Of a DNA stretch of 64,000 nt, positions 14,317 to 56,433 are shown in pieces. Source of the DNA: Spirochaetia bacterium (GTDB taxonomy: Bacteria > Spirochaetota > Spirochaetia > UBA9216); NCBI GenBank assembly GCA_963675665.1, contig OY776510.1:2848001-2912000 (forward strand), read 5' to 3'. A program made the translations under genes and the position numbers. Below the pieces are notes generated by a model. That model saw only the letters and a list, made by a program, of their open reading frames with translations, did not search any database and was not told the DNA's origin. Positions within the stretch are counted from its first letter, which is position 1; each line of letters begins with the position of its first letter.

Positions 14317-14435
14317 AATAAACAAATAGATACTGTGTATATATTTGTTATTTTGAAGGTTGCCAGGTGTTACTTGTCAAACTTCACTTCAATAGCCCGC
14401 CTTCCATGGCGGGAAAAATGTATAGGAGAAGAAAA
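14317..14435 (+). repeat. Dispersed structured leader element, copy 1 (upstream of lemA)
   Basis: P2 AATAAACAAATAGATAC/GTATATATTTGTTATT, P3 TGAAGGTTG/CAAACTTCA, P4 CCCGCC-TTCCAT-GGCGGG, then TATAGGAG RBS. Confidence 0.7.
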
Positions 14436-15044
14436 ATGACCAATAAAGCATTAAAAATTATTATTCCTGTAGCAATCGTTGTGATAATCATTCTGATAAT
14501 ATATGGTTCATTTGCAGGGACCTATAATAAAATGGTGACCATGGAAGAAACTGTAAAGGCATCATGGAGCCAGGTTGAAAATGTATATCAGCGCAGATTT
14601 GATTTGATTCCGAATCTTGTTGAAACGGTAAAAGGATATGCTGCTCATGAAAGTGAGACATTTACGGCTGTAGCCGAAGCAAGGGCCAACGCCGGAGGGG
14701 TGATGCAAATGTCTGACGAGCTGCTTAATGATCCGGCAGCCTTTGAACGTTTTCAACAGGCTCAGTCAACACTTGGCGGAGCACTGCAGAGACTGCTTGT
14801 TGTAACAGAGAATTATCCGGAACTGAAAGCGAACCAGAATTTTATAGCTCTTCAGGACCAGCTTGAAGGAACTGAGAACCGTATTGCTGTAGAGCGCAAG
14901 CGTTTTAATGAGGCGGTTCAGGTATACAATACATATATAAAGCAGTTTCCCAGAATGATTATTGCCAATATTGCCGGTTTCGACGAAAAACCGTATTTTG
15001 AAGCTGCTCAGGGTGCAGAAACCGCTCCGAAAGTGGAATTCTAA
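14436..15044 (+). CDS. lemA: LemA family protein
   Basis: WSQVENVYQRRFDLIPNLVETVKGYA and ENYPELKANQNF...LEGTENRIAVER. Start chosen from the RBS. Confidence 0.95.
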   Translation: MTNKALKIIIPVAIVVIIILIIYGSFAGTYNKMVTMEETVKASWSQVENVYQRRFDLIPNLVETVKGYAAHESETFTAVAEARANAGGVMQMSDELLNDPAAFERFQQAQSTLGGALQRLLVVTENYPELKANQNFIALQDQLEGTENRIAVERKRFNEAVQVYNTYIKQFPRMIIANIAGFDEKPYFEAAQGAETAPKVEF

Positions 15045-15054
15045 GGTGAGACAT

Positions 15055-15729
15055 ATGGCTGATTTAAAATTCAGTAAAAATGAAATAGATCGTATAAACA
15101 AGGCAGCTGCACATGTGGAGTCGGTATCTTCCGGTGAAGTTCTTGCCGCGGTGATAAATGAAAGCTCCAATTATGCCGCAGCTGAACTTCTGTTTTCAGT
15201 AATCGGCGGATTTATTTATTATTCTGTTGTCCTGCTTTTTTATTCCGGGATTGAAAACTGGATCAACAGTTTGTTCTGGAGCCCGCAATCATGGTATGTA
15301 ACAGCGTTTTACGGAGCAAGCACGATGCTTGTAATCGGAATAATATATGCAATTACCAACATTCCCGGATTTGACAGAAAGTTCGTGCCGAAAGCCGTGA
15401 TTTCCCGGAATGTTCACCGAAGGGCGCTTGTTCATTTTACAGAGTCAGGTGCCGTTAACACCAGGGACAGGACGGGCATTTTGTTCTTTTTATCGCTCCG
15501 GGAACGCAGGGTTGAGATAATTGCGGATGAAGGTATTAATTCAAAGGTTAAGCCTGAAGATTGGGAAGGAATTCTGAACAACCTGATTGCGGCAATCAGG
15601 AAGGGGCAACCTGCCGATGGACTTGAAAAAGCGATTATGGATTGTTCGGAGATACTGGAGCGTCATTTCCCTGTAAAGAATGATGATGTAAACGAACTGC
15701 CGGACGGCATAGTATTTCTGGAGGATTAA
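15055..15729 (+). CDS. TPM-domain membrane protein
   Basis: ESVSSGEV, TRDRTGILFFLSLRERRVEIIADEGI and NELPD. Usual lemA partner gene. Confidence 0.88.
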   Translation: MADLKFSKNEIDRINKAAAHVESVSSGEVLAAVINESSNYAAAELLFSVIGGFIYYSVVLLFYSGIENWINSLFWSPQSWYVTAFYGASTMLVIGIIYAITNIPGFDRKFVPKAVISRNVHRRALVHFTESGAVNTRDRTGILFFLSLRERRVEIIADEGINSKVKPEDWEGILNNLIAAIRKGQPADGLEKAIMDCSEILERHFPVKNDDVNELPDGIVFLED

Positions 15730-15732
15730 TTT

Positions 15733-16539
15733 ATGCAGAAGAAAATTGTGTTTCTTTTTATAATAACGGCCGTTCTCCTGACTCCTGTATTTGCTTTGAA
15801 GGTTCCGGCCCTGGATGGTCCGGTTGTTGACAAGGCTGGAGTTATTTCAAGCAGGGATGAAACAGTAATTGAACAGATGCTCATGGAGCTTGAAAGCGCA
15901 ACGACCGCACAGGTTGCAGTGCTTACAGTACCTGATTTAAGCGGAGAATCCATTGAAGAATATTCCTTGGCAGTAGCTGAAGAATGGAAGCTTGGTCAGG
16001 CCGGAAAGGATAACGGCGCGCTGATTCTTCTTGCGCTCAAGGAGCGTAAAGTTCGGATCGAAGTAGGCTACGGCCTGGAAGCGGACCTTACTGATGCAAA
16101 ATCCGGATATATTATCAGGGAAGTTATTCTTCCTCAACTCAGGGAAGGAAATTACGCACAGGGGCTGTATGACGGCGCTTCAGCAGTCGGCGGGGTAATA
16201 TTAAAAACAGCAGACATCAGTGCGGAACAGATAGCCAAATCAAACGAAGCTGCTTCAAGGCAGAGCTCTTCTTCACGCGCAGGCATTCCGTTTAACCTGG
16301 TAGTCTTCATTCTGATCATCTTCTTTTCTTCGATTGCAAGGCTCGGAAGGCGCGGACGCAGACGCGGAGGCAGTATCTGGCCCTGGTTTTTTCTCGGCTC
16401 AATGATGGGATCCGGAAGGCGATATAACGGTCGCGACGGGTTCGGCAGCGGGGGGTTCGGAGGCGGCGGTTTCGGCGGAGGAGGTTTCTCCGGCGGAGGC
16501 GGAGGCTTCGGAGGCGGAGGGGCTTCAGGCGGTTGGTAA
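15733..16539 (+). CDS. TPM-domain (YgcG-like) protein with Gly-rich tail
   Basis: VVDKAG, WKLGQAGKDNGALIL, RIEVGYGLE and GGFSGGGGGFGGGGASGGW. Confidence 0.92.
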   Translation: MQKKIVFLFIITAVLLTPVFALKVPALDGPVVDKAGVISSRDETVIEQMLMELESATTAQVAVLTVPDLSGESIEEYSLAVAEEWKLGQAGKDNGALILLALKERKVRIEVGYGLEADLTDAKSGYIIREVILPQLREGNYAQGLYDGASAVGGVILKTADISAEQIAKSNEAASRQSSSSRAGIPFNLVVFILIIFFSSIARLGRRGRRRGGSIWPWFFLGSMMGSGRRYNGRDGFGSGGFGGGGFGGGGFSGGGGGFGGGGASGGW

Positions 16540-18312
16540 ACCGCCCGGGGCAGCTGCTTCTGCTACAAGTTTCCTCTGCCATTCAAGCAGTTCGCGCATG
16601 GCTTTCGGGTTGTTGCCTTCGATATCGGTCCCAACCCTGAATACGGGTTCCGTGCCGGAGCCCCTCATCCAGAGAAAAGCAACATCACGAAGCACCTGTA
16701 TGCCGGAATTGTCGGTGCCGACGCCGGTAAGCATTATTTTAAGCCCGCCGGTTTCCTTTCCGCTGCGGTATTTCGGGCCGACGCCTTTTCGTGCGGCAGT
16801 TCCTTCATAATTTACCTCGTACCATCCGGTGATACCGTAATCGGTTTTGAGCTGTACTTTACGTTTTTCAAAAGCCGCGGGAAAAATTTGCTCATAGTTT
16901 GCCTTTAGTTCGGCATGGCTTATAGTTCCGATTTGCATTTTGGCTTCGTCTTCATAAGCACTTGTTGTCGAGAAGGCAGGCAGAGATTCCACTGCTTCAG
17001 TTATTGAGCTGAATCCGGCAAAAGCAATCAGCTTTACCAGCGCGAATATTGTGTTGAGTGGATCACGTACTGTCGCCGGATGTGTAATATTCCCTCCGTT
17101 TGAACCTTCTCCGAGGATCCTGACCTCATAACCGTCGGCTCTTTTCTCTGCTGCAAGGTTAACTACATTTGCCTCGCCGACCTCGGCGCGAAAAACGTCA
17201 GCTCCGTATTCTTCGGCAATACGCTCTATCCGCATTGAGGTGGGACCGTTTACTGCAACAGCCGTTTTTGCGCCGGGCTTTGTCTGTTTCATGAATTCGA
17301 GTTCCGATTTTACCGAAAGAGCGAAAACCTCCTGTGCTTCAAGAATTTCGGCGCGTTTTGTCCGCTCATTGAAGTATACAATATTGCCGCGATCCCCGTC
17401 GTTGTCCGGAACATATCCGAGTATAAAGGCCGGATCCGCAGTATGGGCTTTTTCAAGTTCAGCGCGGCATAAATCCAGTGAACTGCCTTCAGGCACAATA
17501 CGGTGGACTACCGCGCCGGGAATATCGTTCAGAAAAAGGGTTTTCATTCCGAAGCTTTTAAAGTATTCCCTGTCGATGCTGACTCCGCGGGCTGAACCGT
17601 TAAGCTCGGCTACTATCCCGATTTTTGATGCTGAAGTGCGCAGCCGATCCATAACGGTTTTCTGACTGTCCGGATTGGATTCAGCCGTTATAACTTCATT
17701 TGAGAATACAGTATAGGCAGCTTCGGCAGCAGCTTTATTTTTTGAAGGATCCGGCAGGACTGATTCCGGAGATGATCCCGGTTCAGCAAGAACATCGGAG
17801 TAGCGGTTATACTTATCTTCGTCAACTGCAGCGGCTATAACATTTGAGATGAAGTTTTTTGCCGTATTTCCGCCAAGTACGGCCCCGTCTGATAATCCGA
17901 ATTTAAACCCGTTATGGCCTATCGGATTATGGCTGGCCGAGATATATGCAAACCCGTCGATATCCGGTGCAGTTTTTACCCGGGCCATAAGCTCGGGTGC
18001 TGCTGTAATTCCTGAATACCTGATGCTGAATCCGAGTTGTTGCAGTGTTTTTATAATCACCGAAGCGATGGCAGGACCGGTGGGCCTTGCATCCATCCCG
18101 ACGGCTATTGTCCTGCCGCCGTGTTCAGAAACAAGCTCGCCGAAGATATCAGTGATTATCGCTGATGCCGCGGCGTCTTCAGCCGTGATCTCCGTGCTTT
18201 TACTTTCCTCATCGGCGGTCCGGCCGTTGTCGGCGGCAAATATCTTTCTGAAACCGGATGCTGAAAGAATAAACCGGGAAAAATTTTCCTGAAATGAATT
18301 ATAATCTGCCAC
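16525..18312 (-). CDS. Phosphoglucomutase/phosphomannomutase-family phosphohexomutase
   Basis: ISASHNP phosphoserine loop, PDNDGDR metal loop, GEGSNGG and MRGSGTEPVFRV. Confidence 0.88.
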   Translation of the reverse strand: MADYNSFQENFSRFILSASGFRKIFAADNGRTADEESKSTEITAEDAAASAIITDIFGELVSEHGGRTIAVGMDARPTGPAIASVIIKTLQQLGFSIRYSGITAAPELMARVKTAPDIDGFAYISASHNPIGHNGFKFGLSDGAVLGGNTAKNFISNVIAAAVDEDKYNRYSDVLAEPGSSPESVLPDPSKNKAAAEAAYTVFSNEVITAESNPDSQKTVMDRLRTSASKIGIVAELNGSARGVSIDREYFKSFGMKTLFLNDIPGAVVHRIVPEGSSLDLCRAELEKAHTADPAFILGYVPDNDGDRGNIVYFNERTKRAEILEAQEVFALSVKSELEFMKQTKPGAKTAVAVNGPTSMRIERIAEEYGADVFRAEVGEANVVNLAAEKRADGYEVRILGEGSNGGNITHPATVRDPLNTIFALVKLIAFAGFSSITEAVESLPAFSTTSAYEDEAKMQIGTISHAELKANYEQIFPAAFEKRKVQLKTDYGITGWYEVNYEGTAARKGVGPKYRSGKETGGLKIMLTGVGTDNSGIQVLRDVAFLWMRGSGTEPVFRVGTDIEGNNPKAMRELLEWQRKLVAEAAAPGGLPTA

Positions 18313-18340
18313 TGCAATATCCTTTTTAATAATTTTTATT

Positions 18341-19564
18341 TTATTTCAGGGCGTCTTCGATTCTGCTCATTGCTTCATTAACATTTTCAACAGAATTGAA
18401 GGCGCTTATTCTGATAAAGCCTTCTCCGCATTTACCGAATCCGCTGCCCGGGGTACACACAACTTCGGCCTTTTTCAGAAGAAGATCGAAGAAATCCCAT
18501 GAATCCATACCGCCTTCTATCCATATGTACGGGGAGTTGTATCCGCCGTAACAGGTATATCCGAGGTCGGTCATCTTGTTACGGATAATCTTTGCATTGT
18601 TCAGATAGTAATCAACAAGTTGGGTTACTTCTTTTTTGCCCTGTTCGGAATAAACGGCTTCCGCAGCGCGCTGAACAGGGTAGGATACTCCGTTGAATTT
18701 TGTGCTGTGGCGCCTGTTCCAGAGCGGATGGAGCTCAACACGGTTGCCGTCGGCAGTAAAACCGCGGCATTCAGACGGGATTACCGTATATGCACATCTG
18801 GTTCCGGTGAATCCTGCTGTCTTGGAAAAACTTCTGAACTCAATTGCGCACTTGCGGGCCCCGTCAATTTCATAAATACTGTGAGGAATTGATTCATCGC
18901 GGATGAAGGCAACGTAAGCGGCGTCAAAAAGAATAAGGGCGTCGTTATCAAGAGCGTATTTAACCCAGGCTTCAAGCTGCTTTTTTGTTGCTGTTGCCCC
19001 TGTCGGATTATTCGGGAAACAGAGGTATATAACATCCGCTTTTTGCTGAGGCGGCGAGGGGACAAAACCGTTTTCATTTGTAGAATCCAGGTAGACAAGA
19101 CCTTTGTAGCGGCCGTTTTCCCATATGCCGGTACGTCCCGCCATGACGTTTGTATCTACATAAACAGGATAGACCGGATCGGGAACTGCGATAACGCAGT
19201 CATCGGAAAAGAGCTCCTGAATGTTTCCGGTGTCGCATTTTGAACCGTCGCTGATAAAAACTTCATCTGCAGTGATGTTGCAGCCGCGGGCGGCAAAATC
19301 GTTCTGCGCAATTGCCTCGCGCAGAAAAGCATATCCCTGTTCGGGGCCGTATCCGCGAAAGGTTTCTTCGGCCGCCATATCGTCGACGGCTTTATGGAAA
19401 GCCTCGAGACATGTCGGAGTAAGCGGTTTTGTAACGTCGCCTATCCCGAGTTTTATGATTTTGTTGTCCGGATTTTCATCCTGGTATGCTTTAACACGTT
19501 TGGCAATATCTGAAAAGAGATATGAAGCCTTCAACTTTGAATAGTTTTCATTGACCTTTATCAT
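18341..19564 (-). CDS. dapL: LL-diaminopimelate aminotransferase
   Basis: [40 protein letters not shown] and [13 protein letters not shown]. Confidence 0.96.
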
Positions 19565-19719
19565 GATGTACCTCTCTGTGGGGGTGGAATGGCAACAGTA
19601 TACATAAAAACAAATTATGAGTAAATCCACCGGTAAAACGCAAAAAAAGTCGATGATTTTGCCGAAACAGAACAATTAATCTCAAGCACCGTTTTTCTGC
19701 ATGTCGTATGATTTTATCA

Positions 19720-19752
19720 CCTGCCATTCATGGCTGGATTTTAGGAGGAAAA
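19720..19752 (+). repeat. Partial copy (P4 + T-tract + RBS) of the dispersed leader element
   Basis: CCTGCCA-TTCA-TGGCTGG-ATTTT-AGGAGG-AAAA before ATG 19753. Confidence 0.4.
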
Positions 19753-20226
19753 ATGAAATTTGGACTGAAACAAATCGGAAGTATTGAGCAGGAGGCGAGC
19801 GGGTTCATTGTTCGCCTGGAATCTGTTTACAGGGAAGCGTTAACAGGTATCGACGGGTTCAGCTGGCTGAACATTATATGGTGGGCAAACCAGTTTGATT
19901 CAGAGGAGTTTCGCGACATCCTGACGACTCAAAAACCTTATAAAAAAGGCCCTGAAAAACTCGGGATTTTCGCTACCCGTTCTCCAATAAGGCCGAATCC
20001 TGTGGCCATCACACCGGTTTATGTAAGCAGAATTGATTTTAAGGCTGGGGTGATCTACACTCCGTATATTGATGCCGAAGCCGGAACGCCGGTTATCGAT
20101 ATCAAGCCTTACCACGGCAGCTCCGACCGGGTAGACCGCTGGAAGGTTCCCGGCTGGTGTTCGGATTGGCCGAAAACTGTAAAAGAATCTGCTGATTTCG
20201 CCTGGGAAGATGTTTTTAATTTTTAG
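19753..20226 (+). CDS. TsaA/TrmO-like SAM-binding protein
   Basis: GIFATRSPIRPNPVA and IDAEAGTPVIDIKPY motifs. Confidence 0.85.
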   Translation: MKFGLKQIGSIEQEASGFIVRLESVYREALTGIDGFSWLNIIWWANQFDSEEFRDILTTQKPYKKGPEKLGIFATRSPIRPNPVAITPVYVSRIDFKAGVIYTPYIDAEAGTPVIDIKPYHGSSDRVDRWKVPGWCSDWPKTVKESADFAWEDVFNF

Positions 20227-20254
20227 CCGGTTAACCGGCAAATGGAGAAGACGG

Positions 20255-32937: not shown

Positions 32938-33093
32938 AGTGGTTTTATAACATTATTACAGGTTTTAGGTAACATTACGGCGCAGGAAATATGTTAAAAT
33001 AATGGTAAACTGGTAATTATCGATAGACTGATTAAGCTTTGAATATTATCTTTTTATAGATGTATAATAAAAATATAAATATCGGTGATTTTT

Positions 33094-33229
33094 GGAGAAA
33101 TAATAAAAGTACTTCCATGTACTTTTATTATTTTGAGGTTTGAAAAGCTGAACAATTTTTGCGGTCATTACTTTCAAACCTCCTGCAAAGTAACCCGCAT
33201 TCATGCGGGGATTTTTATAGGAGTAAATC
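33094..33229 (+). repeat. Dispersed structured leader element, copy 2 (upstream of the ABC ATPase)
   Basis: P2 AAATAATAAAAGTAC-TTCCAT-GTACTTTTATTATTT (perfect 15 bp), P3 GAGGTTTGAAA/TTTCAAACCTC, P4 CCCGCAT-TC-ATGCGGG, then ATTTTTATAGGAG. Confidence 0.8.
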
Positions 33230-33949
33230 TTGGCTATTGTTGAACTGAGGGATGTAAAAAAGATATATCCGCTGGGAAAAACTGAAGTACATGCGGTAAA
33301 AGGCGTGAGTTTTGAAATATGCAAAGGTGATTTTATATCAATCGCCGGACCGTCGGGAAGCGGCAAGTCCACAATTCTGAATATGATCGGATGTATCGAT
33401 ATCCCTACTGAGGGAACGGTTCTGATCAATGGAATTGATACGGACGGTCTCTCAGACAAGAAGATAACAGATCTGCGTCATGAAGTTCTCGGTTTTATCT
33501 TCCAGTCATTCAACCTTATTCCGGTGCTTAATGTGTATGAAAATGTTGAATTTCCGCTGCTGCTTGGAAAGGCAAGGATGGGCAAGGCGGAAAAAGCCGG
33601 CTGGATTGATATGCTCATTGATGAAGTAGGGCTTCAGGACTGGCGTAATCACAAGCCCAATGAACTCTCCGGCGGTCAGCGTCAGAGGGTCGCCATAGCG
33701 CGTGCGCTTGCTACAAAACCCGAAATTGTTCTGGCCGACGAACCTACCGCAAACCTTGATTCGGTCACCAGCGAAGCGATAATCAATCTTATGAAAAAGA
33801 TTAACAGGGACCTCGGCACAACCTTTATTTTTTCAACCCATGACCCGTCTATTGTCGGCGTGGCTGATCACATTATAAGGCTGCGGGACGGGCTCATCAG
33901 TGAAAATTACAGGCAGGATGATGCGCGTGCCTGCAGGGACGAAGACTGA
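33230..33949 (+). CDS. ABC transporter ATP-binding protein (LolD/MacB-like)
   Basis: GPSGSGKST, LSGGQRQRVAIARAL, LADEPTANLD and STHD. Confidence 0.95.
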   Translation: MAIVELRDVKKIYPLGKTEVHAVKGVSFEICKGDFISIAGPSGSGKSTILNMIGCIDIPTEGTVLINGIDTDGLSDKKITDLRHEVLGFIFQSFNLIPVLNVYENVEFPLLLGKARMGKAEKAGWIDMLIDEVGLQDWRNHKPNELSGGQRQRVAIARALATKPEIVLADEPTANLDSVTSEAIINLMKKINRDLGTTFIFSTHDPSIVGVADHIIRLRDGLISENYRQDDARACRDED

Positions 33950-35472
33950 TGCCGGTTCTTTTCCGAATCGCCGTACGCAACCTGAGGCAGCACAGATCCA
34001 AAAGTCTTATCATCGGGATAATAATGGCAATAGGCGTAATGATTCTGGTAGTCGGAAATACGCTTATCAATACAATAGATACCGGCATCGAGCGTGCATT
34101 TATTGATAATTATACGGGGAATATAATGATCACCGGGATTACCGAAAACGATATCTCCCTTTTCGGCGTTCAGTCTCCCGGCGGTCTCGAAGAAACCCCT
34201 GCAATACCCGACTTCTGGCAAGTCCGCGAACATATTGAAAGCCTGCCGAATGTCGTCGGCGCCGCAAACCAGATTACCGGTTTCGGAATCATAAACGTTG
34301 AGGGCGCTGATGAGGATAAAGGTCCGTACATGGGGCTGCTGTTCGGCATTGAGCCCAGGGAGTACAGAAGCATCTTTTCCAACACCGTAATTCGTGAAGG
34401 GCATTATCTGCAGCCCGGGGAAGAAGGCATCATGATGTCGCAGACGAACCTGGAAACGATGGAAGATATTTTTGATATGGATATAGGCGTAGGCGATAAA
34501 ATCCTTATTACTGCGCCGGGTTCCGCCGGTTTTAAAATTCGTGAAGTCGAGATAATCGGTATTTACGGACTTGAATTTGATTCCGAAGCAGCCGGATACA
34601 TATCATATATCGATGCGCAGACACTGCGCGTAATGAAGGGAATGAATCTGGGAAATTCAGGTGAGATCGAACTTTCTGACGAAGAAACCTCGCTGCTTGA
34701 AAGCGACAGTTTTGACGCAATGTTCAGCATCGATACAGTAACCGGAGAAGCAGAACTTGATTTCGAGATGACAGAAGATAACCTTTTCGACATACTTGAT
34801 CTTGATACAGGCGGGATCGCAGAGGGTGAAGAAGAAGTTGCGGAAGTAATCGAAACGGAAACTGACGCTGAAACCTTAGGCGGTTCGGCAACCTGGGAAT
34901 ATATACTTCTGAAAACAGGTACCCAGCGGGCGGCAGTCCGGCTTGTAGCGGAACTGAATATGTGGTTTCTGGAAAACGGCATAAACGCGCGCGCCCAAGA
35001 CTGGAAAGCAGCGGCCGGGCCGTTCTCAACTACTGCTGATGTAATAAGAATAGTATTCAATATAGCCATAATACTGGTTGCTGTTGTGGCAATTATTATC
35101 ATGACGAATACACTGGTAATTAATGTTGTCGAACGTACCTCAGAAATAGGAACCATGAGGGCCCTCGGCGCCCACAGGGGTTTTATACGGAATATGGTCA
35201 CAACCGAGATTTTTACCATCTCAGCTATTTTCGGTTTTATGGGAATGATTACGGGCGTTATTGTACTCGTTGTAATTGGACTTATCGGTTTTGAAGCGAC
35301 CAACCCGTTTCTTGAGATTCTTTTTGCCGGTCCGGTCCTTAAACCCGTTTACTCGGTTTATTCGGTAATCGGATCATGGATTATTGTTATCCTGATCGGA
35401 ATGATTGCAAATATTTATCCGCTAAGACTTGCACTTAGAGTTCAGCCCATCAAGGCTATGACATCAGAATAG
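33949..35472 (+). CDS. FtsX/LolC-like ABC permease with acidic periplasmic insert
   Basis: AVRNLRQHRSKS and ERTSEIGTMRALG. Confidence 0.9.
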   Translation: MPVLFRIAVRNLRQHRSKSLIIGIIMAIGVMILVVGNTLINTIDTGIERAFIDNYTGNIMITGITENDISLFGVQSPGGLEETPAIPDFWQVREHIESLPNVVGAANQITGFGIINVEGADEDKGPYMGLLFGIEPREYRSIFSNTVIREGHYLQPGEEGIMMSQTNLETMEDIFDMDIGVGDKILITAPGSAGFKIREVEIIGIYGLEFDSEAAGYISYIDAQTLRVMKGMNLGNSGEIELSDEETSLLESDSFDAMFSIDTVTGEAELDFEMTEDNLFDILDLDTGGIAEGEEEVAEVIETETDAETLGGSATWEYILLKTGTQRAAVRLVAELNMWFLENGINARAQDWKAAAGPFSTTADVIRIVFNIAIILVAVVAIIIMTNTLVINVVERTSEIGTMRALGAHRGFIRNMVTTEIFTISAIFGFMGMITGVIVLVVIGLIGFEATNPFLEILFAGPVLKPVYSVYSVIGSWIIVILIGMIANIYPLRLALRVQPIKAMTSE

Positions 35473-35554
35473 GAGGAGGTGGAGTTTCCAAACTTCATTT
35501 GAAAACTCTTCTCATAAACCTGTCTCCAGGCAGGAACGTTTTACAGGAGAAAAC
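35473..35554 (+). repeat. Dispersed structured leader element, copy 3 (shortened, lacks P2)
   Basis: GAGTTTCCAAACTTCATTTGAAAACTC hairpin containing the shared TTTCCAAACTTCA, then P4 CCTGTCT-CC-AGGCAGG and TTTTACAGGAG RBS. Confidence 0.6.
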
Positions 35555-36868
35555 ATGAGGGACGTTAAGATTGCATTTAGAAATCTCACCAGGCAGAAAA
35601 AAAGAACTATTCTGTTGTCTGCAGCCATAGCGTTCGGAATCTATATCATTACAATGATAAACGGGTTTACCGGAAGTTTTATTGAAAATGTAAGCGAGAA
35701 TTTTTCAAATCTGCTGGCAGGACATATATTTATAGAGGGTGTGGAGAAATCGGAATCCGGAAAAACTTTATCGCTTGTGCGAAATGACGATATTCTGATG
35801 CAGTCGATTGAAGAAACTGCAATACCCTGGAAATACCTCACAAAGCGATCGGATCTTCACGTTTCATTGATTTTCGAAGGCGAAAGCATCAACCAGTCGG
35901 TGACGGGAGCCGACTGGGAGTCGGAAGAATATTTCAAGGAACGGATTATTCTTAAGGAAGGATCTTTTGCCGATTTACAGGCAGAAAGGCAGGGAATTAT
36001 CATCAGTGAGAAAGTCGCTGAGCGCCTTAATATAGAAATTGGCGACCGGATGCTGGTTAAGTGCAGAACATACACAGGCCAGCAGAATGTAGGCGAGTTC
36101 GTGCTTTCAGCTGTACTCATCGATGCAAGCATTTTCGGCAATACAACGGCGTATGCGAATATCTCGTATGTAAATGAACTGCTGAACCTGCAGCCTTTCG
36201 AGTACATGTCGCTTGGAATCTATCTTGAAGATCCTGAATTAATAGATTCTTCAGCAGATAAGCTGTATGAAAATCTGCTGACCAAAGTCAGCATGTTTGA
36301 CCGGAAAGCTGAAGATGAAGATGAAAACCTGATTATAGCCATGCTTGAACAGCAGGAAGAAGAGGAGTGGGAAGGTCTCCGGTTCCAACTGGTTACCCTG
36401 AATGATGTTATGAAAGAAGTTCAGCAGATAGTGGATGTTCTCAATACGGCCGCTCTTATTATTCTGCTGGTGCTTTTCGGAATTATAATGGTCGGGGTAA
36501 CGAATACTTTCAGAATGGTACTGATGGAACGTACAAAAGAAATCGGTACTATGCGCGCCGTCGGTATGCAGCGGGGAATAGTACGCAAACTTTTTCTGTA
36601 CGAGGCTTTCTTTATTGCTGTAATCGGGGTAATTGTCGGGCTGATTCTTGCTGTGATAACAATGCTGATACTGATGCAGATTAACTGGGGAGTTGAAACT
36701 CCTGCATTCATGCTGATGAAGAACGGGTATATGACGTTTAAACTTTCGGTTTTACAGGTGTTATTCAATTTTGTAGTTGTCAGCGGGCTTACGCTTCTTG
36801 CCGCTTTTTTTCCATCAAACAAAGCGGCGCTGCTTCAGCCTGCAGATGCCCTCAGGAGCACCAAATAG
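35555..36868 (+). CDS. FtsX/LolE-like ABC permease
   Basis: AFRNLTRQKKRT, ERTKEIGTMRAVG and PADALR. Confidence 0.9.
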   Translation: MRDVKIAFRNLTRQKKRTILLSAAIAFGIYIITMINGFTGSFIENVSENFSNLLAGHIFIEGVEKSESGKTLSLVRNDDILMQSIEETAIPWKYLTKRSDLHVSLIFEGESINQSVTGADWESEEYFKERIILKEGSFADLQAERQGIIISEKVAERLNIEIGDRMLVKCRTYTGQQNVGEFVLSAVLIDASIFGNTTAYANISYVNELLNLQPFEYMSLGIYLEDPELIDSSADKLYENLLTKVSMFDRKAEDEDENLIIAMLEQQEEEEWEGLRFQLVTLNDVMKEVQQIVDVLNTAALIILLVLFGIIMVGVTNTFRMVLMERTKEIGTMRAVGMQRGIVRKLFLYEAFFIAVIGVIVGLILAVITMLILMQINWGVETPAFMLMKNGYMTFKLSVLQVLFNFVVVSGLTLLAAFFPSNKAALLQPADALRSTK

Positions 36869-37034
36869 GGAGGAATGATAAAATAACTAAAAGTACTTCG
36901 TACTTTTAGTTATTTTATCATTTTGAAGTTTGAAGCAAAAACTGCTTTGCAGTTTAGCTTTCCAAACTTCACCTCTTTTACCTGCCTTCCAGGCTGCCAT
37001 ACAGCTTTTGCAGGAAATTTTTACAGGAGTAGAT
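36869..37034 (+). repeat. Dispersed structured leader element, copy 4 (longest)
   Basis: GGAGG, perfect 23-bp P2 (36874-36922), P3 TGAAGTTTG...CAAACTTCA with an inner AAACTGC/GCAGTTT stem, CCTC, P4 CCTGC...GCAGG, then TTTTTACAGGAG. Confidence 0.85.
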
Positions 37035-37778
37035 ATGAAGAAACATTTTTTAATACTAATACTCGTAATTCTTGGGAGCCTGCTGTATGCAGAACCGGAT
37101 TTTGACGTAATGCTTGCCGAGATAGATCAGCTGGGCAGTTTTGACGACACGGATTTTTCCTGCGTTTACACCTTCGTTTCCGAGAAACCCGGAGAAGAAA
37201 CCGAGGTGACCCAGGCAAGAATGTTCAGACGGGATGCGAAGGAACAGTTTGTAATGCTGATTCTCAAACCTGAATACCAGAAAGGGCAGGGGTATCTTAA
37301 GGTTGACGATAACGTCTGGTTTTATGACCCTGAAAGCAGGAAATTCACCCATTCCTCCATGAAAGAAAATGTTCAGAATTCCGAGGCAAGGAATTCCGAT
37401 ATGGACGGTCTGTCGTTGTCGGAAGATTACGAAGTGGAAAGCTGGGAGATCGGAAACCTCGGAAATTTTGAAACCTACATACTTACCCTTCGTGCGTTGA
37501 ATAACGAAGTCACCTATCCAAGGCTCAGGATCTGGGTGAGAACTGATGCGACGATTGTTCTCAAGGAAGAAGATTACAGCCTTTCCGATCGCCTGATGCG
37601 TACGACCTATTTTCCCAAGTATGTAAAGGTCGGCGAGAAATATGTTCCGTCGCAGATACTTATGGTGGACAATCTGCAGGAAGGAGAAAAAACCCAGCTG
37701 ACCATGAAGAACCCGTCGACGGCTGATTTGCCCGACTCGGTTTTCTCCAAGGCGTATATCGAACGCGTGAACAATTGA
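37035..37778 (+). CDS. Outer-membrane lipoprotein-sorting (LolA-like fold) protein
   Basis: Signal peptide, P..KGQGYLK..DNVWFYDP and VFSKAYIE. Position in the ABC operon is typical. Confidence 0.8.
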   Translation: MKKHFLILILVILGSLLYAEPDFDVMLAEIDQLGSFDDTDFSCVYTFVSEKPGEETEVTQARMFRRDAKEQFVMLILKPEYQKGQGYLKVDDNVWFYDPESRKFTHSSMKENVQNSEARNSDMDGLSLSEDYEVESWEIGNLGNFETYILTLRALNNEVTYPRLRIWVRTDATIVLKEEDYSLSDRLMRTTYFPKYVKVGEKYVPSQILMVDNLQEGEKTQLTMKNPSTADLPDSVFSKAYIERVNN

Positions 37779-50799: not shown

Positions 50800-50800
50800 A

Positions 50801-51328: not shown

Positions 51329-51381
51329 TTGTAATTATTGATATATTGTGGTTTGAAATAGATAATATCAGGAGTATGTGA

Positions 51382-51573: not shown

Positions 51574-52616
51574 TGCCGGAAGAAACAACCGGAGTCGCAG
51601 CAACTGAAGCTGAATCGACTTCCGTTGTTATAACCAAGGTTAAAAAACCGAAGGTTAAAAAACCGAAGGTTAAAAAACCGAAGGTTAAAAAACCGAAGGT
51701 TAAAAAACCGAAGGTTTTACTGATCTTCGGGCCGACAGCAGTAGGAAAAACCGCACTGCTGGAAGCTCCTGTTTTTAAAAATTCAGAAATAATAAATGCC
51801 GACTCAATGCAGGTTTACCGGGGTATGGATATAGGTACGGCCAAGCCCGATGCGGCCTTTCTGTCGCGGGTAAAGCATCACCTTATTGATATTCGCGGGC
51901 CTGGCGAACAGTTTCATGCCGGAGATTTTGTTGAGCTGGCCGACAGGCTTGTAACAGAAATAATCGGGCGGGGCAGGCTTCCCGTTATCTGCGGCGGAAC
52001 GGGTTTCTATTTTAAAAACTTCATCTACGGCCTGCCGGATGCCCCGCCGTCGGATGAGCTGATTCGTAAACGGCTGCAGGCGGAGCTGGACGCGGGGGGA
52101 GCTGAAAGTCTGGTGAAAAGGCTTGAAAAGGCGGACCCCGTATCAGCCGCCAGGATAAACAAAAACGATAATTACAGGATTCTCAGGGCCCTTGAGGTAT
52201 TTGAGGTTTCGGGACGCCCGCTTTCCGAATACAGGATTCCATCAAAGCCCCGTGCAGAGTACGACTGCCTTCTTGTCGGGTTGAACCGCGAGCGTGAAGA
52301 GCTGTATAAACGGATAAATCAGCGTGTTGATATAATGTTTGCAGAAGGTCTTGAGATTGAAGTCTCGCGTCTGAGGGCGGAAGGCTGCAATGAAACGTAC
52401 CCCGGAATGAAGGGAATCGGTTACCGCGAGTTTTTTACAGCCGAAAAAGAAGGTTTGACGAGGGAGCGGCTTGCAGAACTGATTAAACGTAATTCGAGAC
52501 ATTACGCAAAAAGACAGATTACATGGTTCGGTCAGCTTGAAGGAATAAACTGGTTCAGCCCTGATGATATTGACGGAATCAGTGCCTGCGTTAAGAATTT
52601 TTTATCCGGCAGCTGA
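51573..52616 (+). CDS. miaA: tRNA dimethylallyltransferase
   Basis: GPTAVGKT, INADSMQVYRGMDIGTAKP, GGTGFY and YAKRQITW. Confidence 0.96.
   Translation: MPEETTGVAATEAESTSVVITKVKKPKVKKPKVKKPKVKKPKVKKPKVLLIFGPTAVGKTALLEAPVFKNSEIINADSMQVYRGMDIGTAKPDAAFLSRVKHHLIDIRGPGEQFHAGDFVELADRLVTEIIGRGRLPVICGGTGFYFKNFIYGLPDAPPSDELIRKRLQAELDAGGAESLVKRLEKADPVSAARINKNDNYRILRALEVFEVSGRPLSEYRIPSKPRAEYDCLLVGLNREREELYKRINQRVDIMFAEGLEIEVSRLRAEGCNETYPGMKGIGYREFFTAEKEGLTRERLAELIKRNSRHYAKRQITWFGQLEGINWFSPDDIDGISACVKNFLSGS
51636..51716 (+). repeat. In-frame 15-bp tandem repeat (5.4 copies) in miaA
   Basis: (AAGGTTAAAAAACCG)x5 + AAGGTT, encoding (KVKKP)5KV. Confidence 0.97.
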
Positions 52617-52624
52617 CCTTTTTT

Positions 52625-53182
52625 TCAGGAACCTTTCTCTTCAGAAAAAACAACAGCTGAAAATATCTCGATCTTCGTTGCCGGGTCTTTCCATGCATCT
52701 TTCGGCAGTCCGGCCTTCATGCAGGTGTGCTGCACAAAGGTGTCGCGGTCCCAACCCTGTTCGGTTGCGACCTGGGGCAGCAGCACTCCGGAACTGAACC
52801 CCCTGGTCATAAAGATACCGTGAACGCCTGTTTTTATTTCCGATATATCGGTAATTTCACGAAGAGGCGATAGAACGGAGATTTCAATATGAATACGGTT
52901 GAATTCTTCAGGTCTTAAAGCCGGGAACCGGGGATCGTCGAATGCTGCCGCATGCGCCATCGATGTAACGGTATCTATAAGGGGGCGTCGTCCGATGATA
53001 TTGCCTATACAGCCGCGGAGCATACCGCTGCTGTGAAGCGTTACAAAAGCGCCGCAAACCTGCCGAAGGTTTGCGGTCGGCGCCGGAAACTCTACCGGCC
53101 CCAGATCCAGATCTGATTTGATTTTTTCTCTGGCAGTTACAAGCAGTATTCGTTTTTCTTCCCCCGATAGGTTGAAATCCAT
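52625..53182 (-). CDS. amrA: AmmeMemoRadiSam system protein A (AMMECR1 domain)
   Basis: GAFVTL..LRGCIG, AAFDDPRF, EISVLS and GVLLPQVA. Confidence 0.92.
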   Translation of the reverse strand: MDFNLSGEEKRILLVTAREKIKSDLDLGPVEFPAPTANLRQVCGAFVTLHSSGMLRGCIGNIIGRRPLIDTVTSMAHAAAFDDPRFPALRPEEFNRIHIEISVLSPLREITDISEIKTGVHGIFMTRGFSSGVLLPQVATEQGWDRDTFVQHTCMKAGLPKDAWKDPATKIEIFSAVVFSEEKGS

Positions 53183-53207
53183 AATAATTCCTCCCTGAAA
53201 AGGCTGT

Positions 53208-54605
53208 TCAGTCGATGTCCATCATTCTGTTTAGTCTTTCCTGATCAAGTATAACAGATAAATTCTTTTCCTGTGTAGGAATAACCAGGCCTTTTAGTCC
53301 GTCTTTTGCGCGCCTGAGATATTTTACCTGGGTATAGTATAATTCGCCCCTGCCTGAATTGCGTCCTTTACTGTAGAACAGCGCGAGATTTCCGGCATCA
53401 AGAAGGATATCGAGCGGGACCGACTTTCCCTTTATGGTTTTGATAAAAACATATCCGCCCGGATAATCTCTTGTATGAAGCCAAAGATCATTTCCGCGCA
53501 TGAATTTTCGTAAAAGGGTATCATTTTCAGAAGAACTTCGACCAACCAGAATTGTGTATATGCCTGACCTGTAGCTGAGTCCAGGCGGTTTTTCTTTCTC
53601 GTCTTCCCGGCTGGGTTTCGGAACTGATTCTATAAACGATTTAAGGACTTCAAGGCTTTCTTCCTTCTCAACCTGCAGCCTGTCGGCTTCAATGTTTTTA
53701 AGCATAAGTCGGTGGTTCTTCAGATCTTCTTCCACTTTTTCGACCCCGGATTTTGCCTTGCGGTATCGTGTGTAATATTTTTCTGCATTCTTTTCAGGGC
53801 TGAGGGTGGGATTAAGTTCTATCTGTATCTCTTCGTTATCCGAATAATAGTTATTTACGGTTACCCATTTATCTCCGCGGCTGACAAGATGAATATTACT
53901 CATCAGCAGATCTCCGGTTTGTTTATATGCTTCAAACTGCTCATACTGTCCCGATTTTTTCTCAAGCTTGTCGAGAGTTGAGCGAATACGGGCCTCATCC
54001 GAGGCTATCCTGCGAAGGGCTTTTTCACGAAACCGCAACAACTCGGAATCATGCTCGTTTGAGCTGTAAAACTCATTGATTTTTTCGTTAAACGAACCGC
54101 TGCCGGGAAGTTCCCTTATGCTGAATTCCCTGGCAGAAGGTTTTGCCCCGGGCAGCACGAAACTGCCGCCTGAAACCTCACCGCGGGCGGGCCTGCGGTA
54201 AAAAGCGTCATGTACGTTGCCTTCGGAATCGGCGGCTATGATATTGGCGGCGCCGCTCCAGAGTCTGAACCAGAGAACAATCTCTTCGCCTGCCCGAAGA
54301 ATATCCATCCTGACGATTCTGTCGTTATTTATCTGTTTTAATGATATTACTCTTCCGCCCCTGACTCTTGATCTCATAAACTGTGCAAACCGCTGCAGTT
54401 TAATTTCATTGGCGGGTGCCGCCGGTACAAGATGAAGACGAGTTCTCCCGGGCGCCAGGCATACAATAATGCCGAAACGTCCTCCCGGCTTGTAAAACTC
54501 AAGATACAGGGTGTGGAAATTAGGCTGTTTGATCTTTTGCAGATGAGCGCCTTCAATATCAAGCTCACCAAGGACCGCATCAATTTCTTTATGGTTTAGT
54601 GACAT
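53208..54605 (-). CDS. rqcH: NFACT/RqcH (FbpA-like) ribosome quality-control protein
   Basis: NDRIV, NAEKYY.RY.KAK, VGRSSSEND and LWLHTRDYPG. Confidence 0.88.
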   Translation of the reverse strand: MSLNHKEIDAVLGELDIEGAHLQKIKQPNFHTLYLEFYKPGGRFGIIVCLAPGRTRLHLVPAAPANEIKLQRFAQFMRSRVRGGRVISLKQINNDRIVRMDILRAGEEIVLWFRLWSGAANIIAADSEGNVHDAFYRRPARGEVSGGSFVLPGAKPSAREFSIRELPGSGSFNEKINEFYSSNEHDSELLRFREKALRRIASDEARIRSTLDKLEKKSGQYEQFEAYKQTGDLLMSNIHLVSRGDKWVTVNNYYSDNEEIQIELNPTLSPEKNAEKYYTRYRKAKSGVEKVEEDLKNHRLMLKNIEADRLQVEKEESLEVLKSFIESVPKPSREDEKEKPPGLSYRSGIYTILVGRSSSENDTLLRKFMRGNDLWLHTRDYPGGYVFIKTIKGKSVPLDILLDAGNLALFYSKGRNSGRGELYYTQVKYLRRAKDGLKGLVIPTQEKNLSVILDQERLNRMMDID

Positions 54606-54616
54606 ACTTCCGGATT

Positions 54617-55171
54617 CTATACAGACATCCGGCTCTTTTCAACAGCAGAATAAAAACTATCCAGATCTTTTTCCGAGAAGAAAACAAGGATTACTTCGCG
54701 GGGAAGGCTGTTATTTCTGAGGTGATCAAGTATGGTTTCATAAGCTATAACAGCGGCCAGCTTTTTGGGAAAGCCGTAAATTCCGGTTGATATTGCAGGA
54801 AAAGCAATTGTCTTGATTCCGGTTTCCGACGCAAGGTTGAGAGAATTTCGGTAAGCGTCGGCAAGGGTTTCACGTTCGTTTGTTTTACCGCCGTGCCAGA
54901 TTGGCCCTACTGTATGGATTACATATTTTGCCGGCATATTACCTGCGGTTGTAAGAACTGCTTTTCCGGGAGGAAGTCCGTCGGGATAACGGTGGGTGCG
55001 AATGTCCCTGCATTCGGCAAGAATTAAGGGCCCCCCGGCCCTGTGGATTGCTCCGTCAACGCCTCCTCCGCCAAGAAGGCTCGAATTGGCGGCATTTACT
55101 ACCGCATCAACGTCCATGGAAGTTAAATCACCGGTTAGAACCTTTAACCGGTCCGGGAATTTCTTCTCCAT
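54617..55171 (-). CDS. Macrodomain O-acetyl-ADP-ribose deacetylase (YmdB-like)
   Basis: GDLT, VNAANSSLLGGGGVDGAIH, VIHTVGP and PAISTGIYGFP. Confidence 0.95.
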   Translation of the reverse strand: MEKKFPDRLKVLTGDLTSMDVDAVVNAANSSLLGGGGVDGAIHRAGGPLILAECRDIRTHRYPDGLPPGKAVLTTAGNMPAKYVIHTVGPIWHGGKTNERETLADAYRNSLNLASETGIKTIAFPAISTGIYGFPKKLAAVIAYETILDHLRNNSLPREVILVFFSEKDLDSFYSAVEKSRMSV

Positions 55172-55256
55172 TGAATCCTCCGGTTAATAATGATAGAGGT
55201 GTTTTCAATATATGTCCAATTAATTCGGATTTAACCGGATATAACCGAACGATGAT

Positions 55257-56315
55257 TTATTCCTGAAGCTCCTTCATTGCAGCAAGAAGCGTGTTCATAT
55301 CCGCATCGGTGCCTATAGTAATTCTTACAAAATCGGAAATACCCGGGAAGTTAAAAAATCGTACGAGTATTTTACGGTCCCTGAGTCTTGAATAGATTTC
55401 TTTTCCGGTAAGTCCGTTTCGGCGTGTAAAAACAAAATTTGCAGCGGAAGGCAGAACCTCCCATCCGAGAGCTTCGGCTTCAGCGGTAAACCTTTTCCTG
55501 GTTGCTATTATTCTTCTGATTACCGATTCAGAGTATTCTCTGTCCCGTACAGCCAGCTCGCCGCATTTCTGTGCCATGAAATCAACCGGGTATGAATTAA
55601 ATGAATCTTTAACGGTTGTAAGAGCATTAATAAGTTTTTCATTTCCAAGCGCATAGCCGAGACGAAGTCCTGCAAGCGATGAACTTTTTGAGAAGGTTCT
55701 TACAACCAGAAGATTATCATAAGCGCTGATAAGTTTTACGGCAGATTCACCGCCGAATGCGATATACGCTTCATCGATAGCAACAAGCCTGTCTTTTCTG
55801 AAGCCGTCGAGAAGTCTTTTTATTTCCGGGAGGGGCAGGCCGATGCCGGTAGGGGCGTTCGGGTTAGGAATAATCAGTCCTGCCGTATCTTCCCGAAGAT
55901 AATCATCAATGCAGATTGAGAAATCCTTATGCAAGCCGATTTTTTCAAAGGGAATATTATAAAAGCCCGAATAAACCGGATAGAACGAATATGTGAATTC
56001 AGGAAACAGCAGCGGCCCGTTTTTTCCGTCGAAAAAACCGAAAAACACAAACGAAAGAACTTCGTCCGAGCCGTTGCCGATAAAAACATTTTTAGGACTT
56101 ACATCTTCATGCTCGGCAATTGCTTCACGAAGAAGCGATGATGTAGGTTCAGGGTACAGCCTGAGTTTATTAATATCGATTGAGGACAGAAATTCCTTTA
56201 TCCTGGGTGTAGGCGGATATGGATTTTCGTTTGTGTTGAGTTTTATATATTCTCCGTCCCGGGGCTGTTCGCCCGGAACATAGGGGCTGAGGTTCGTCAT
56301 TCGTTCTGAAAGCAT
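55257..56315 (-). CDS. hisC: Histidinol-phosphate aminotransferase
   Basis: PYVPGEQP, KLNTNENPY, GNGSDE, NPNAPTG, DEAY and RTFSKS..LAGLRLG. Confidence 0.93.
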   Translation of the reverse strand: MLSERMTNLSPYVPGEQPRDGEYIKLNTNENPYPPTPRIKEFLSSIDINKLRLYPEPTSSLLREAIAEHEDVSPKNVFIGNGSDEVLSFVFFGFFDGKNGPLLFPEFTYSFYPVYSGFYNIPFEKIGLHKDFSICIDDYLREDTAGLIIPNPNAPTGIGLPLPEIKRLLDGFRKDRLVAIDEAYIAFGGESAVKLISAYDNLLVVRTFSKSSSLAGLRLGYALGNEKLINALTTVKDSFNSYPVDFMAQKCGELAVRDREYSESVIRRIIATRKRFTAEAEALGWEVLPSAANFVFTRRNGLTGKEIYSRLRDRKILVRFFNFPGISDFVRITIGTDADMNTLLAAMKELQE

Positions 56316-56433
56316 GATCTTCTCCAATAAAAAGTATCCGCCATGGATGGCTGTTAGTGAGGTGAAGTTTGCATGCGTAGCTGGCAAACTTCAAAATGAT
56401 AAAATAACATGGACGTTATTTTATCATTCCTCC
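56316..56433 (-). repeat. Dispersed structured leader element, copy 5 (upstream of hisC)
   Basis: Minus strand reads GGAGG-AATGATAAAATAAC-GTCCAT-GTTATTTTATCATT-TTGAAGTTTGC...GCAAACTTCA-CCTC-...GCCATCCATGGC-GGATAC-TTTTTATTGGAG-AAGATC-ATG. Confidence 0.85.

Follow-up and report, generated by a model that had tools for sequence, protein, structure and literature searches.

Short palindromic elements, called mini-elements here, stand directly before the start codons of genes in a 64,000-nt stretch of a Spirochaetia genome (G000). The stretch, referred to throughout as the window, occupies positions 2,848,001-2,912,000 in one contig of 5.15 Mb (43% G+C). The downstream open reading frames (ORFs) are assigned by Pfam to the LemA, ABC ATPase, FtsX permease, LolA-like, class I/II aminotransferase and TrmO/TsaA-like families. 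A MAFFT alignment of five window copies gives a common plan that starts with 5' GGAG(G)A. There follow an AT-rich hairpin with a (T/A)TCCATG-type tip (P2), a hairpin on TGAAGTTTG/CAAACTTCA (P3), a C/T tract, and a GC hairpin that also has a TCCATG tip (P4), after which come a T-run, AGGAG and the start codon.

The window was searched, filters off, with R1, a covariance model (CM) of 44 copies. Its seed alignment includes the four full window copies, so their four scores match by construction and are not independent; independent support for the family comes from the genome-wide nhmmer and CM matches. The copies in the window, and the parts of the one at the hisC-like gene, are as follows.

14317..14435, plus strand: full-length mini-element with a decayed left end and no 5' GGAG, 5' of lemA (ATG 14436); CM match 14298-14455, E 1.4e-17
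19720..19752, plus strand: P4-only stretch (GC hairpin, TTCA-type loop, T-run, AGGAGG) before a TrmO/TsaA-like gene (ATG 19753)
33094..33229, plus strand: full mini-element 5' of an ABC-transporter ATPase gene (TTG start 33230); CM match 33080-33250, E 2.8e-25
35473..35554, plus strand: 5'-truncated copy (P3 remnant, P4 and T-rich GGAG) between two FtsX permease genes, the second with ATG 35555; CM match 35458-35575, E 2.1e-10; nhmmer match to model positions 46-122
36869..37034, plus strand: full mini-element that separates an FtsX permease gene (stop TAG 36866-36868) from a LolA-like gene (ATG 37035); CM match 36855-37055, E 6.7e-23
56316..56433, minus strand: full mini-element 5' of a class I/II aminotransferase gene (hisC-like, ATG 56315-56313); CM match 56299-56447, E 1.4e-26
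56433-56425, minus strand: left end of the hisC-like-site copy, GGAG + GAATG, read from the sequence
56428-56395, minus strand: P2 of the same copy, loop 56414-56409
56393-56363, minus strand: P3 of the same copy, read from the sequence
56362-56359, minus strand: pyrimidine tract CCTC of the same copy, read from the sequence
56351-56340, minus strand: P4 of the same copy, read from the sequence
56333-56322, minus strand: right end of the same copy, T-rich GGAG, with spacer 56321-56316 to the start codon

The sequence-only reading, an earlier interpretation of this DNA made from its letters, had listed all six as copies of one family, each oriented with its gene and ending at GGAG just before the start. 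On re-reading, the six sequences are as it described, and orientation and end hold for every one. Membership in one family holds for the five copies that match R1 (E 1.4e-26 to 2.1e-10) and is not established for the P4-only stretch, whose CM match (19604-19774) is borderline at just 19 bits and E 0.029 and which has no nhmmer match at E<1e-3; it may be the remnant of a right end. The compensatory change that the same reading had seen in P3 is real in the alignment, as the GAGG/CCTC variant of the 33094 copy. A cmscan of the window against Rfam gave no matches at gathering thresholds; the sequence-only reading had likewise recognised no riboswitch or leader family.

Individual copies depart from the common plan. 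The P4 and T-run of the 33094 copy (33194-33219) fit a terminator-like pattern, with the match at 33194-33209, and a promoter-like site lies upstream at 33039-33068; the terminator pattern fits one of three copies within the scanned 5 kb. The copy at the LolA-like gene carries a nested palindrome in its P2 tip and one additional hairpin in its P3 loop. Smaller palindromic modules of this kind are nested in mini-elements at window positions 36883-36912 and 36936-36957 and elsewhere in the genome (738778, 894792, 1454621, 4930024, 1148517, 2714718 and 4787868). They take the form of a AAAGTACTTCGTACTTT-type insert in the P2 tip or one to three tandem AAACTGCnnnGCAGTTT units in the P3 loop, and with them the body of the mini-element looks modular. 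A marine-metagenome contig (run X7) is without 36 nt at window 33064-33099, between two ATAATAAAA repeats at the left edge of the 33094 copy, the 5' GGAGAA of which is missing in that relative.

Census and orthologous sites

Three rounds of nhmmer (E<1e-3) find 91 mini-element matches in the genome, and the CM finds 92. Matches are about 75-175 nt long, and reading frames after the 5' GGAG close within a few codons (judged by eye on untranslated copies), which leaves no coding capacity for a transposase. The anatomy from 5' to 3' is a left end, an AT-rich P2 whose 5' arm is the left end, P3, the C/T tract, the GC hairpin P4 and a right end. The left end is GGAG followed in its commonest form by GAATGATAAAA, i.e., GGAG-GAATGATAAAA(A)..., and the right end is TTTTATAGGAG; a short inverted match, ATAAAA / TTTTAT, links the two. 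Many copies are 5'-truncated.

Placement is strict. At 72 of the 91 matches the element ends at a tetramer resembling a Shine-Dalgarno (SD) sequence, followed by 3-10 nt and a start codon that opens an ORF of 60 aa or more; the tetramer is GGAG in 69 of these 72 and the start ATG in 68, and the spacer from GGAG to the start is 5, 6 or 7 nt in 63 of the 69. Nine matches run into a further copy of their tandem array, five lead directly into an insertion sequence (IS), IS-A, and the remaining five are 3'-truncated, with a co-oriented ORF start 22-91 nt beyond. The arrays hold 5, 3, 2, 2 and 2 copies, and successive units overlap in them, the 3' AGGAGGA of one serving as the 5' GGAGGA of its neighbor. 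No mini-element facing away from the neighboring gene was seen among the 91 matches; the random orientation of an ordinary repetitive extragenic palindromic (REP) sequence, which the sequence-only reading had named as a refuting outcome, did not appear, orientation being strictly with the gene throughout the genome. Gene context was taken from a crude ORF-based gene set (~4400 pseudo-genes). By this measure 47 of the 91 lie behind a co-oriented ORF ending at most 60 nt away, 23 behind a more distant co-oriented ORF and 21 behind a divergent one, and about half of the mini-elements appear to sit inside operons.

Mini-elements were found in all five same-genus genomes (23, 35, 19, 50 and 71 matches) and in four of five other genomes of the family (10, 4, 3 and 1 matches; 0 in G007), and not found in 10 genomes from other families of the class. 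Copies in the relatives have the same ends and adjoin start codons (7 of 7 inspected). The empty sites that the sequence-only reading had proposed to look for exist at all three window loci examined. At the LolA-like gene, six of seven relatives (G001, G002, G003, G004, G008 and G010) have just 10-25 nt from stop to ATG with a plain SD, and G005 is occupied by a clearly different variant. The hisC-like site is empty in three of four relatives (G002, G003 and G004), with a P2+P4 variant in G005. The lemA site is likewise empty in three of four (G003, G004 and G005), where a conserved promoter-like block leads directly to the SD and ATG; G001 has an unrelated insert. This block, at window 14275-14316 (TTGCCTC...TATTAACTTAGTTGTA), is kept in five species of the genus (loci L209-L212), and in this genome alone does a mini-element stand between it and the SD.

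A further empty site comes from run X7, whose contigs are mostly 90-99% like the window. One contig joins 36866 to 37025 (ambiguous by 3 nt) and omits 158 nt (36867-37024), leaving ...AAAT AGGAG TAGAT ATG. The site at the LolA-like gene is thereby precisely empty, lacking exactly the mini-element, and as a single contig with a shorter side of 33 nt it constitutes moderate evidence. The mini-elements are not fixed leaders of the window genes.

IS-A and its candidate bridge RNA

The IS that follows some of the mini-elements belongs to the IS110 family. IS-A is present in 15 near-identical copies of ~1,390 nt, each encoding a 370-aa protein with DEDD_Tnp_IS110 and Transposase_20 domains (PF01548 + PF02371) that is 100% identical across all 15. 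At every one of the 15 junctions the host sequence ...(T/A-rich)AGGAGGA meets ATGATAAAAAGTC... on the left, and on the right ...GACTTTTTATAGGAG is followed by 5-7 nt and the ATG of a long ORF. The insertions thus all have the form ...AGGAGGA-ATGATAAAAAG...GACTTTTTATAGGAG-N5-7-ATG, and the site can be drawn as host N4-GGAG-GA, then the IS ending in TTTTTATAGGAG, then 5-7 nt and ATG. IS-A inserts at Shine-Dalgarno sites in the orientation of the gene and brings its own terminal T-rich GGAG; its two ends form a short inverted repeat (ATAAAAAGTC / GACTTTTTAT). At the 15 sites (e.g., 244,300), GGAG and ATG lie 5-7 nt apart, with 6 nt at 12 of them, compared with a background of 26% for the 6-nt spacing among 1,569 gene starts (binomial p ~2e-5). 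The spacing is less uniform at sites in other genomes.

Mini-elements share their termini with IS-A. Short matches between the 91 mini-elements and IS-A concentrate at IS-A positions 0-20 (32 matches) and 1340-1398 (44 matches), compared with at most 6 in each of the other 20-nt bins. The common parts are the first ~16-20 nt, where the 5' arm of P2 is the IS-A left end, and the last ~14 to ~40 nt; the interiors are unrelated. Shared termini around an unrelated interior are the signature of a non-autonomous derivative. Target and orientation are also the same (15 of 15 IS-A copies; 72 of 91 mini-elements directly and 14 more via a tandem copy or IS-A). Five of the 15 IS-A copies lie behind a mini-element and two more behind a P4-like hairpin, with eight at plain SDs without any repeat. 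This is an enrichment behind mini-element right ends, as mini-elements hold just ~77 loci among the ~4400 pseudo-genes.

Likeness confined to the termini of IS-A would also suit copies that are merely decayed internal-deletion remnants of the full element, with no self-propagating family behind them, and both the IS-A left end truncated to its first 96 nt in G005 and the many 5'-truncated mini-elements can be read that way. Such an origin is highly improbable given that P3, P4 and their order are common to ~90 copies and to five sister species without a counterpart inside IS-A, and that mini-elements form tandem arrays. The shared order points instead to a common mini-element ancestor that multiplied.

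Relatives of IS-A with matching junctions next to ATG occur in an Oceanispirochaeta metagenome-assembled genome (MAG; 10 loci, 79% protein identity) and in a Syntrophales MAG (nine loci, 74%). In Ca. Marispirochaeta associata (12 loci, 56%), contigs break at the element, and six left and six right junctions are readable. The sister-genus genome G009 has contig-end fragments with IS-A-type junctions, and single loci with GGAGG directly before an IS-A-type left-end motif are found in Desulfobacterales, Treponema, Leptospira, Dehalococcoidales and other MAGs. SD targeting is, judging from these junctions, a conserved property of the IS-A clade.

The 211-nt left end of IS-A folds better than shuffled sequences (z -4.1). 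Alignment of 20 diverse left ends gives a closing stem and two sub-domains, with compensatory changes in 10 of 28 predicted pairs, and each sub-domain has an inner GGUC...GACC-type hairpin between single-stranded stretches. The 3' stretch of the first sub-domain is N4-GGAGA, where N4 varies and tracks the four bases before GGAG at insertion sites in four genomes: UUUA in this genome (ttta at three sites, tata at nine, others at three), CAAA in the Syntrophales MAG (caaa/aaaa/gaaa...), UACA in Oceanispirochaeta (taca in 6 of 10 sites) and UUAA in Marispirochaeta (ttaa/ctaa/ataa). The 3' stretch of the second sub-domain is an invariant AUAGGAG, identical to the right end of the element, and its 5' stretch, CAUUC, is the complement of GAATG, the left-end pentamer. 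This 5' stretch changes to CGUGC, CAUAC or CAUGC in elements with left ends GCACG (L032, L033), GTATG (L026, L034) or GCATG (L058), respectively, so that the covariation holds in five of six variant elements, the exception being L056.

In the published logic of bridge RNAs, a target loop and a donor loop each carry a left guide that equals the top strand and a right guide that is complementary to it (PMC11208160). The loop pattern of IS-A agrees with this logic. That its left end is a bridge RNA programmed for GGAG is a well-supported inference from reading the alignments. A conserved CAU in the first sub-domain may read the start codon as part of the target, a suggestion offered only as a lead. 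The left target arm and the left donor arm are almost the same sequence, so the right junction of each insertion would again be a good target. Insertion by IS110 elements normally leaves no regenerated target, according to a 2026 preprint (10.64898/2026.08.14.744561).

Two other candidates for a mobilising partner were set aside. The sequence-only reading had proposed to look for a linked HUH/RAYT or IS transposase (RAYT, REP-associated tyrosine transposase); the Y1/RAYT domain PF01797 was not found in the genome in a search that detected its positive controls, the RAYT/IS200 route was rejected on that basis, and the enzyme that is linked, a DEDD IS110-type recombinase, had not been anticipated. 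IS-B, a second IS110-family element with a 387-aa ORF and ~1.5 kb common to its copies, is present as seven near-identical copies and one diverged copy (e.g., contig C1 553,600-555,700 and 2,621,000-2,622,650, outside the window). It sits in a different palindromic repeat of ~43 nt (...AACCTCTAAnAAnCCC...GGG...TTAG, then IS-B, then GT(T/G)CCC...), and one copy interrupts the P2 arm of a mini-element behind which IS-A stands. IS-B was rejected as the partner because it targets this different palindrome and has a single, off-type insertion in a mini-element P2.

A separate observation concerns the circle that would form from excised IS-A. Its inferred junction, examined by eye, places a right-end TTGACT 17 nt before a left-end TAAAAA, which could constitute a junction promoter. 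Junction promoters in excised circles have been described for other IS families.

Proposed movement in trans and hairpin conservation

The mini-elements are probably non-autonomous elements, similar to MITEs (inverted-repeat transposable elements of miniature size), that are moved by SD-targeting bridge recombinases of the IS110 type; that this happens in trans we infer from the ends and sites they have in common with IS-A. The recombinase and left-end bridge RNA of IS-A, or those of earlier relatives, would act on the mini-elements through the shared donor arms. The donor loop would read the donor junction, made of right end ATAGGAG and left end GAATG, and the target loop the T/A-rich GGAG of a Shine-Dalgarno site, and perhaps also the start codon 6 nt downstream. 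With just these ends retained, a mini-element could then be excised and inserted in trans. Each insertion would recreate the target at the right end, which would account for the tandem arrays and for the IS-A copies stacked behind mini-elements. The right-end GGAG would also replace the SD at its native spacing and leave the downstream gene translatable, so that insertion at gene starts, including those inside operons, should be tolerable.

Several observations weigh against mobilisation by IS-A-type elements. No mobilisation of a mini-element, no circle and no junction of right end with left end was observed in assembled contigs of public runs, none of them listed as RNA, in which circles are unreadable. 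The burst of near-identical IS-A copies is recent and was accompanied by no visible copying of mini-elements. Dispersed mini-elements are diverged, with the best non-tandem pair at 92% identity and a median of 75% (pairs covering at least 85%), and tandem neighbors alone are 95-99% alike. The exact GGAG-GAATG donor arm is kept in just 18 of 63 copies with a covered 5' end, as counted by a crude regular expression. The position of the crossover (core) is ambiguous, given that the shared AGGAG blurs the junction and the copy at the LolA-like gene has one extra G, and the empty sites could have arisen by slippage between flanking AGGAG repeats. The bridge-RNA reading is drawn from alignment and covariation of 4-20 elements, and the IS-A locus has no Rfam match at E<=1. 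In other taxa, genomes with IS-A relatives have no evident mini-element family, as left-end motifs are about as numerous as IS copies (9=9, 11 vs 10 and 14 vs 12 fetched), which suggests that the mini-element family is specific to this lineage. Finally, intact IS-A was found only in this genome and not among 21 relatives, including the five same-genus genomes, which still hold 19-71 mini-elements each. The lack of recent mini-element copies is compatible with movement that is rare or cut-and-paste, or with copies that are mostly fossil.

Fragments of IS-A are present in G005, G009 and G012. In G005, an IS-A-like right-end remnant stands directly before a mini-element at a contig start (G005:C391:1-70, L149), and elsewhere an IS-A left end is truncated after 96 nt (G005:C379:2188-2285, L191). 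This suggests that IS-A-type elements are or were present in G005, unassembled or decayed. Draft assemblies often lose multi-copy IS.

Some of these points would also be expected if the mini-elements were an old, independent repeat family that owed its spread to an unknown or lost system and had right ends that happened to suit IS-A as ideal landing pads, in the way that REP sequences suit IS621 or ISPpu9/10. Five to seven of the 15 IS-A insertions lie behind mini-element or P4-type ends, mini-elements persist in sister species where intact IS-A was not found, and the IS-A burst came without recent mini-element copies; the targeting of a different palindromic repeat by IS-B establishes that an IS110 element can use a repeat as its target in this genome. 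Such an origin would leave unexplained why the left end of the mini-element is that of IS-A, a left end intrinsic to the IS-A clade in phyla without mini-elements, and why the mini-elements are themselves restricted to SD sites in gene orientation. With no Y1/RAYT transposase found in the genome and eight of the 15 IS-A copies at plain SDs without any repeat, an independent origin is unlikely.

Whatever moved the mini-elements, their hairpins have been preserved. For the pairing test, the four full window copies were joined by 40 full-length copies from other parts of the genome, 44 in all, with near-identical tandem duplicates excluded beforehand. Three helices with 31 pairs were set by hand, as RNAalifold, given the MAFFT alignment, retrieved no more than a part of P3 owing to loop indels. 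Paired cells make up 87.8% of the total compared with 75.7% in column shuffles, and none of 500 shuffles reaches the observed value; doubly changed cells number 151, compared with 47.5 in shuffles and 25-43 with partners slid by 1-3 columns. The pairing of P2, P3 and P4 is maintained by selection, as the sequence-only reading had proposed, with selection on RNA and on DNA not told apart. On the sense strand, 29 G-U pairs against 38 A-C mismatches indicate no G-U excess, a weak test in which some cells are alignment errors, especially in P4, and one that speaks weakly against selection acting solely on the sense RNA. The helix that the same reading had drawn between the 5' GAGG and the CCTC after P3 appears in about 12 of 31 predicted minimum free energy folds of full copies, and is inconsistent from copy to copy; both of its sides barely vary. 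The 5' GGAG has a mean predicted unpaired probability of 0.40 and the 3' SD one of 0.39, so the latter is not especially open.

The hairpins are most likely kept for recombination, by analogy with the stem-loop adjacent to the ISPpu10 target, and/or for the inertness of the inserted RNA, and this is the least supported step of the account. P4 has the same position relative to the regenerated target as the ISPpu10 stem-loop. In ISPpu10, that stem-loop lies 5' of the target and acts as a determinant of specificity (bioRxiv 10.64898/2026.03.19.712850). Relatives of IS-A, inspected by eye, have a differently sequenced hairpin just 5' of their right end. An effect at the RNA level, by weak termination at P4 and the U-run or by sequestration of the decoy SD, is possible.

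The sequence-only reading had weighed a new cis-regulatory RNA against a REP/MITE-like element carrying a ribosome-binding site (RBS). As a primary explanation, the former would make the mini-elements structured leaders (riboswitch, attenuator or translational switch) that act through P4 and the U-tract or through pairing of the C/T tract with the SD, their spread being secondary. The strong compensatory variation in three helices, the strict co-orientation with an end at the SD, the terminator-like P4 and T-run of the 33094 copy with a promoter-like site upstream, the roughly 12 of 31 folds in which the 5' GGAG and the C/T tract pair and the 47 of 91 copies within 60 nt of a co-oriented upstream ORF, which would place them in operon transcripts, are all in keeping with such a role. 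A leader role is nonetheless distinctly unlikely. The elements are not kept at orthologues (empty in 6/7, 3/4 and 3/4 relatives at the three window sites), the downstream genes are functionally unrelated, the candidate switch helix is inconsistent, and copies stand in arrays of up to five. Neither the G-U count, weak as that test is, nor the accessibility of the 3' SD favors it, the window has no Rfam match, and the position at the SD is fully accounted for by the target choice of IS-A. The second proposal, a mobile RBS-carrying element, is the one that fits ~91 copies, tandem arrays, empty sites and termini in common with an IS110-family IS.

It is rather unlikely, as a variant of the mobile-element account, that the host uses the mini-elements as RBS or leader cassettes that re-tune translation and operon polarity gene by gene. 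If this were true, each cassette would hold a decoy SD that the C/T tract sequesters, a pair of stabilising hairpins and, in P4 with the U-tract, a leaky attenuator, and RNA-guided recombination would drop it as a module between upstream transcription and the SD-start codon unit. Selection on RNA function would then keep the pairing in place, and a natural recombinase would be programmed to gene starts, its left donor and left target arms being identical and each insertion recreating its target.

Relation to known systems

As a probably trans-mobilised family of IS110-type elements, the mini-elements have a close precedent in MITEPpu9, the MITE-like partner of the IS110-family element ISPpu9 in Pseudomonas putida (PMC12288879). 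It is likewise short, non-coding, flanked by sequences similar to IS110-type left and right ends and found beside the IS or alone; movement with the transposase in trans is proposed, and tandem or stacked arrangements occur (PMC12288879). MITEPpu9 differs in having 8 copies, carrying the small-RNA gene ssr9 and sitting in REP sequences (PMC12288879), whereas the mini-elements have ~91 copies (19-71 in sister species), an SD target in gene orientation, a replacement SD and three covarying hairpins. Mini-IS with only the ends of other IS110/IS1111 members move when the transposase and the non-coding region are supplied in trans (PMC11187229).

Other IS110-family systems provide partial parallels. 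Like IS621 and other IS110 elements, IS-A has a recombinase with a DEDD/RuvC-like and a Tnp domain, a candidate left-end RNA with target and donor loops, and site- and orientation-specific insertion without target duplication, and would share with them the movement of mini-IS in trans (PMC11208160, PMC11187229). IS621 targets a REP sequence, and its left target and left donor arms differ (PMC11208160). Both left arms of IS-A are, in contrast, (T/A)-rich + GGAG, such that insertion would regenerate the target; within the IS-A alignment, the inner hairpin has the sequence-like guide strand on its 3' side. IS900 of Mycobacterium avium subsp. paratuberculosis, also of the IS110 family, has the target motif CATGNNNNNNTCTCCTT, the reverse complement of which is an SD-like AAGGAGA + 6 nt + CATG, and it is rarely intragenic (PMC8141618). 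By its motif, IS900 is in the opposite orientation to the targeted gene start, whereas IS-A is co-oriented and has its own terminal SD, and the text consulted reports no mini-element family for IS900. Older papers are reported to place IS900 between the RBS and the start codon.

The mini-elements can also be compared with two kinds of short repeats outside the IS110 family. REP sequences stand in either orientation, usually behind genes, and have a linked Y1 (RAYT) transposase. As with REPs and bacterial interspersed mosaic elements, the mini-elements are abundant short palindromic intergenic repeats with compensatory stem variation, clustered arrays and frequent use as IS110-family targets. 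They are unlike them in that all are co-oriented with the downstream start codon in a genome where no Y1 transposase was found. Classical MITEs of DDE transposases have terminal inverted repeats and a target-site duplication of fixed length. The mini-elements have a short inverted match between their ends (ATAAAA/TTTTAT), and in place of the duplication that the sequence-only reading had proposed to look for they have a flanking AGGAG repeat that would come partly from the donor and partly from the target, in line with IS110-type recombination.

No description of the mini-element or of an SD-targeting bridge RNA was found in the literature searched, which did not cover subscription journals or ISfinder. 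With tens to ~90 copies per genome across the genus, the mini-elements would be the first large non-autonomous IS110-type family found, the sole precedent found being the 8-copy MITEPpu9. The IS-A clade appears to be programmed to the Shine-Dalgarno site, which is to our knowledge the most common functional motif in bacterial genomes, and to spare the targeted gene by means of a replacement SD. Bridge-RNA recombinases are under intense study as genome-writing tools, and natural examples show which targets and architectures are workable in evolution. In the annotation of genomes from this spirochaete lineage, these repeats account for many of the long structured "leaders" and of the unusually wide gaps inside operons, and the mini-elements should not be mistaken for riboswitches.

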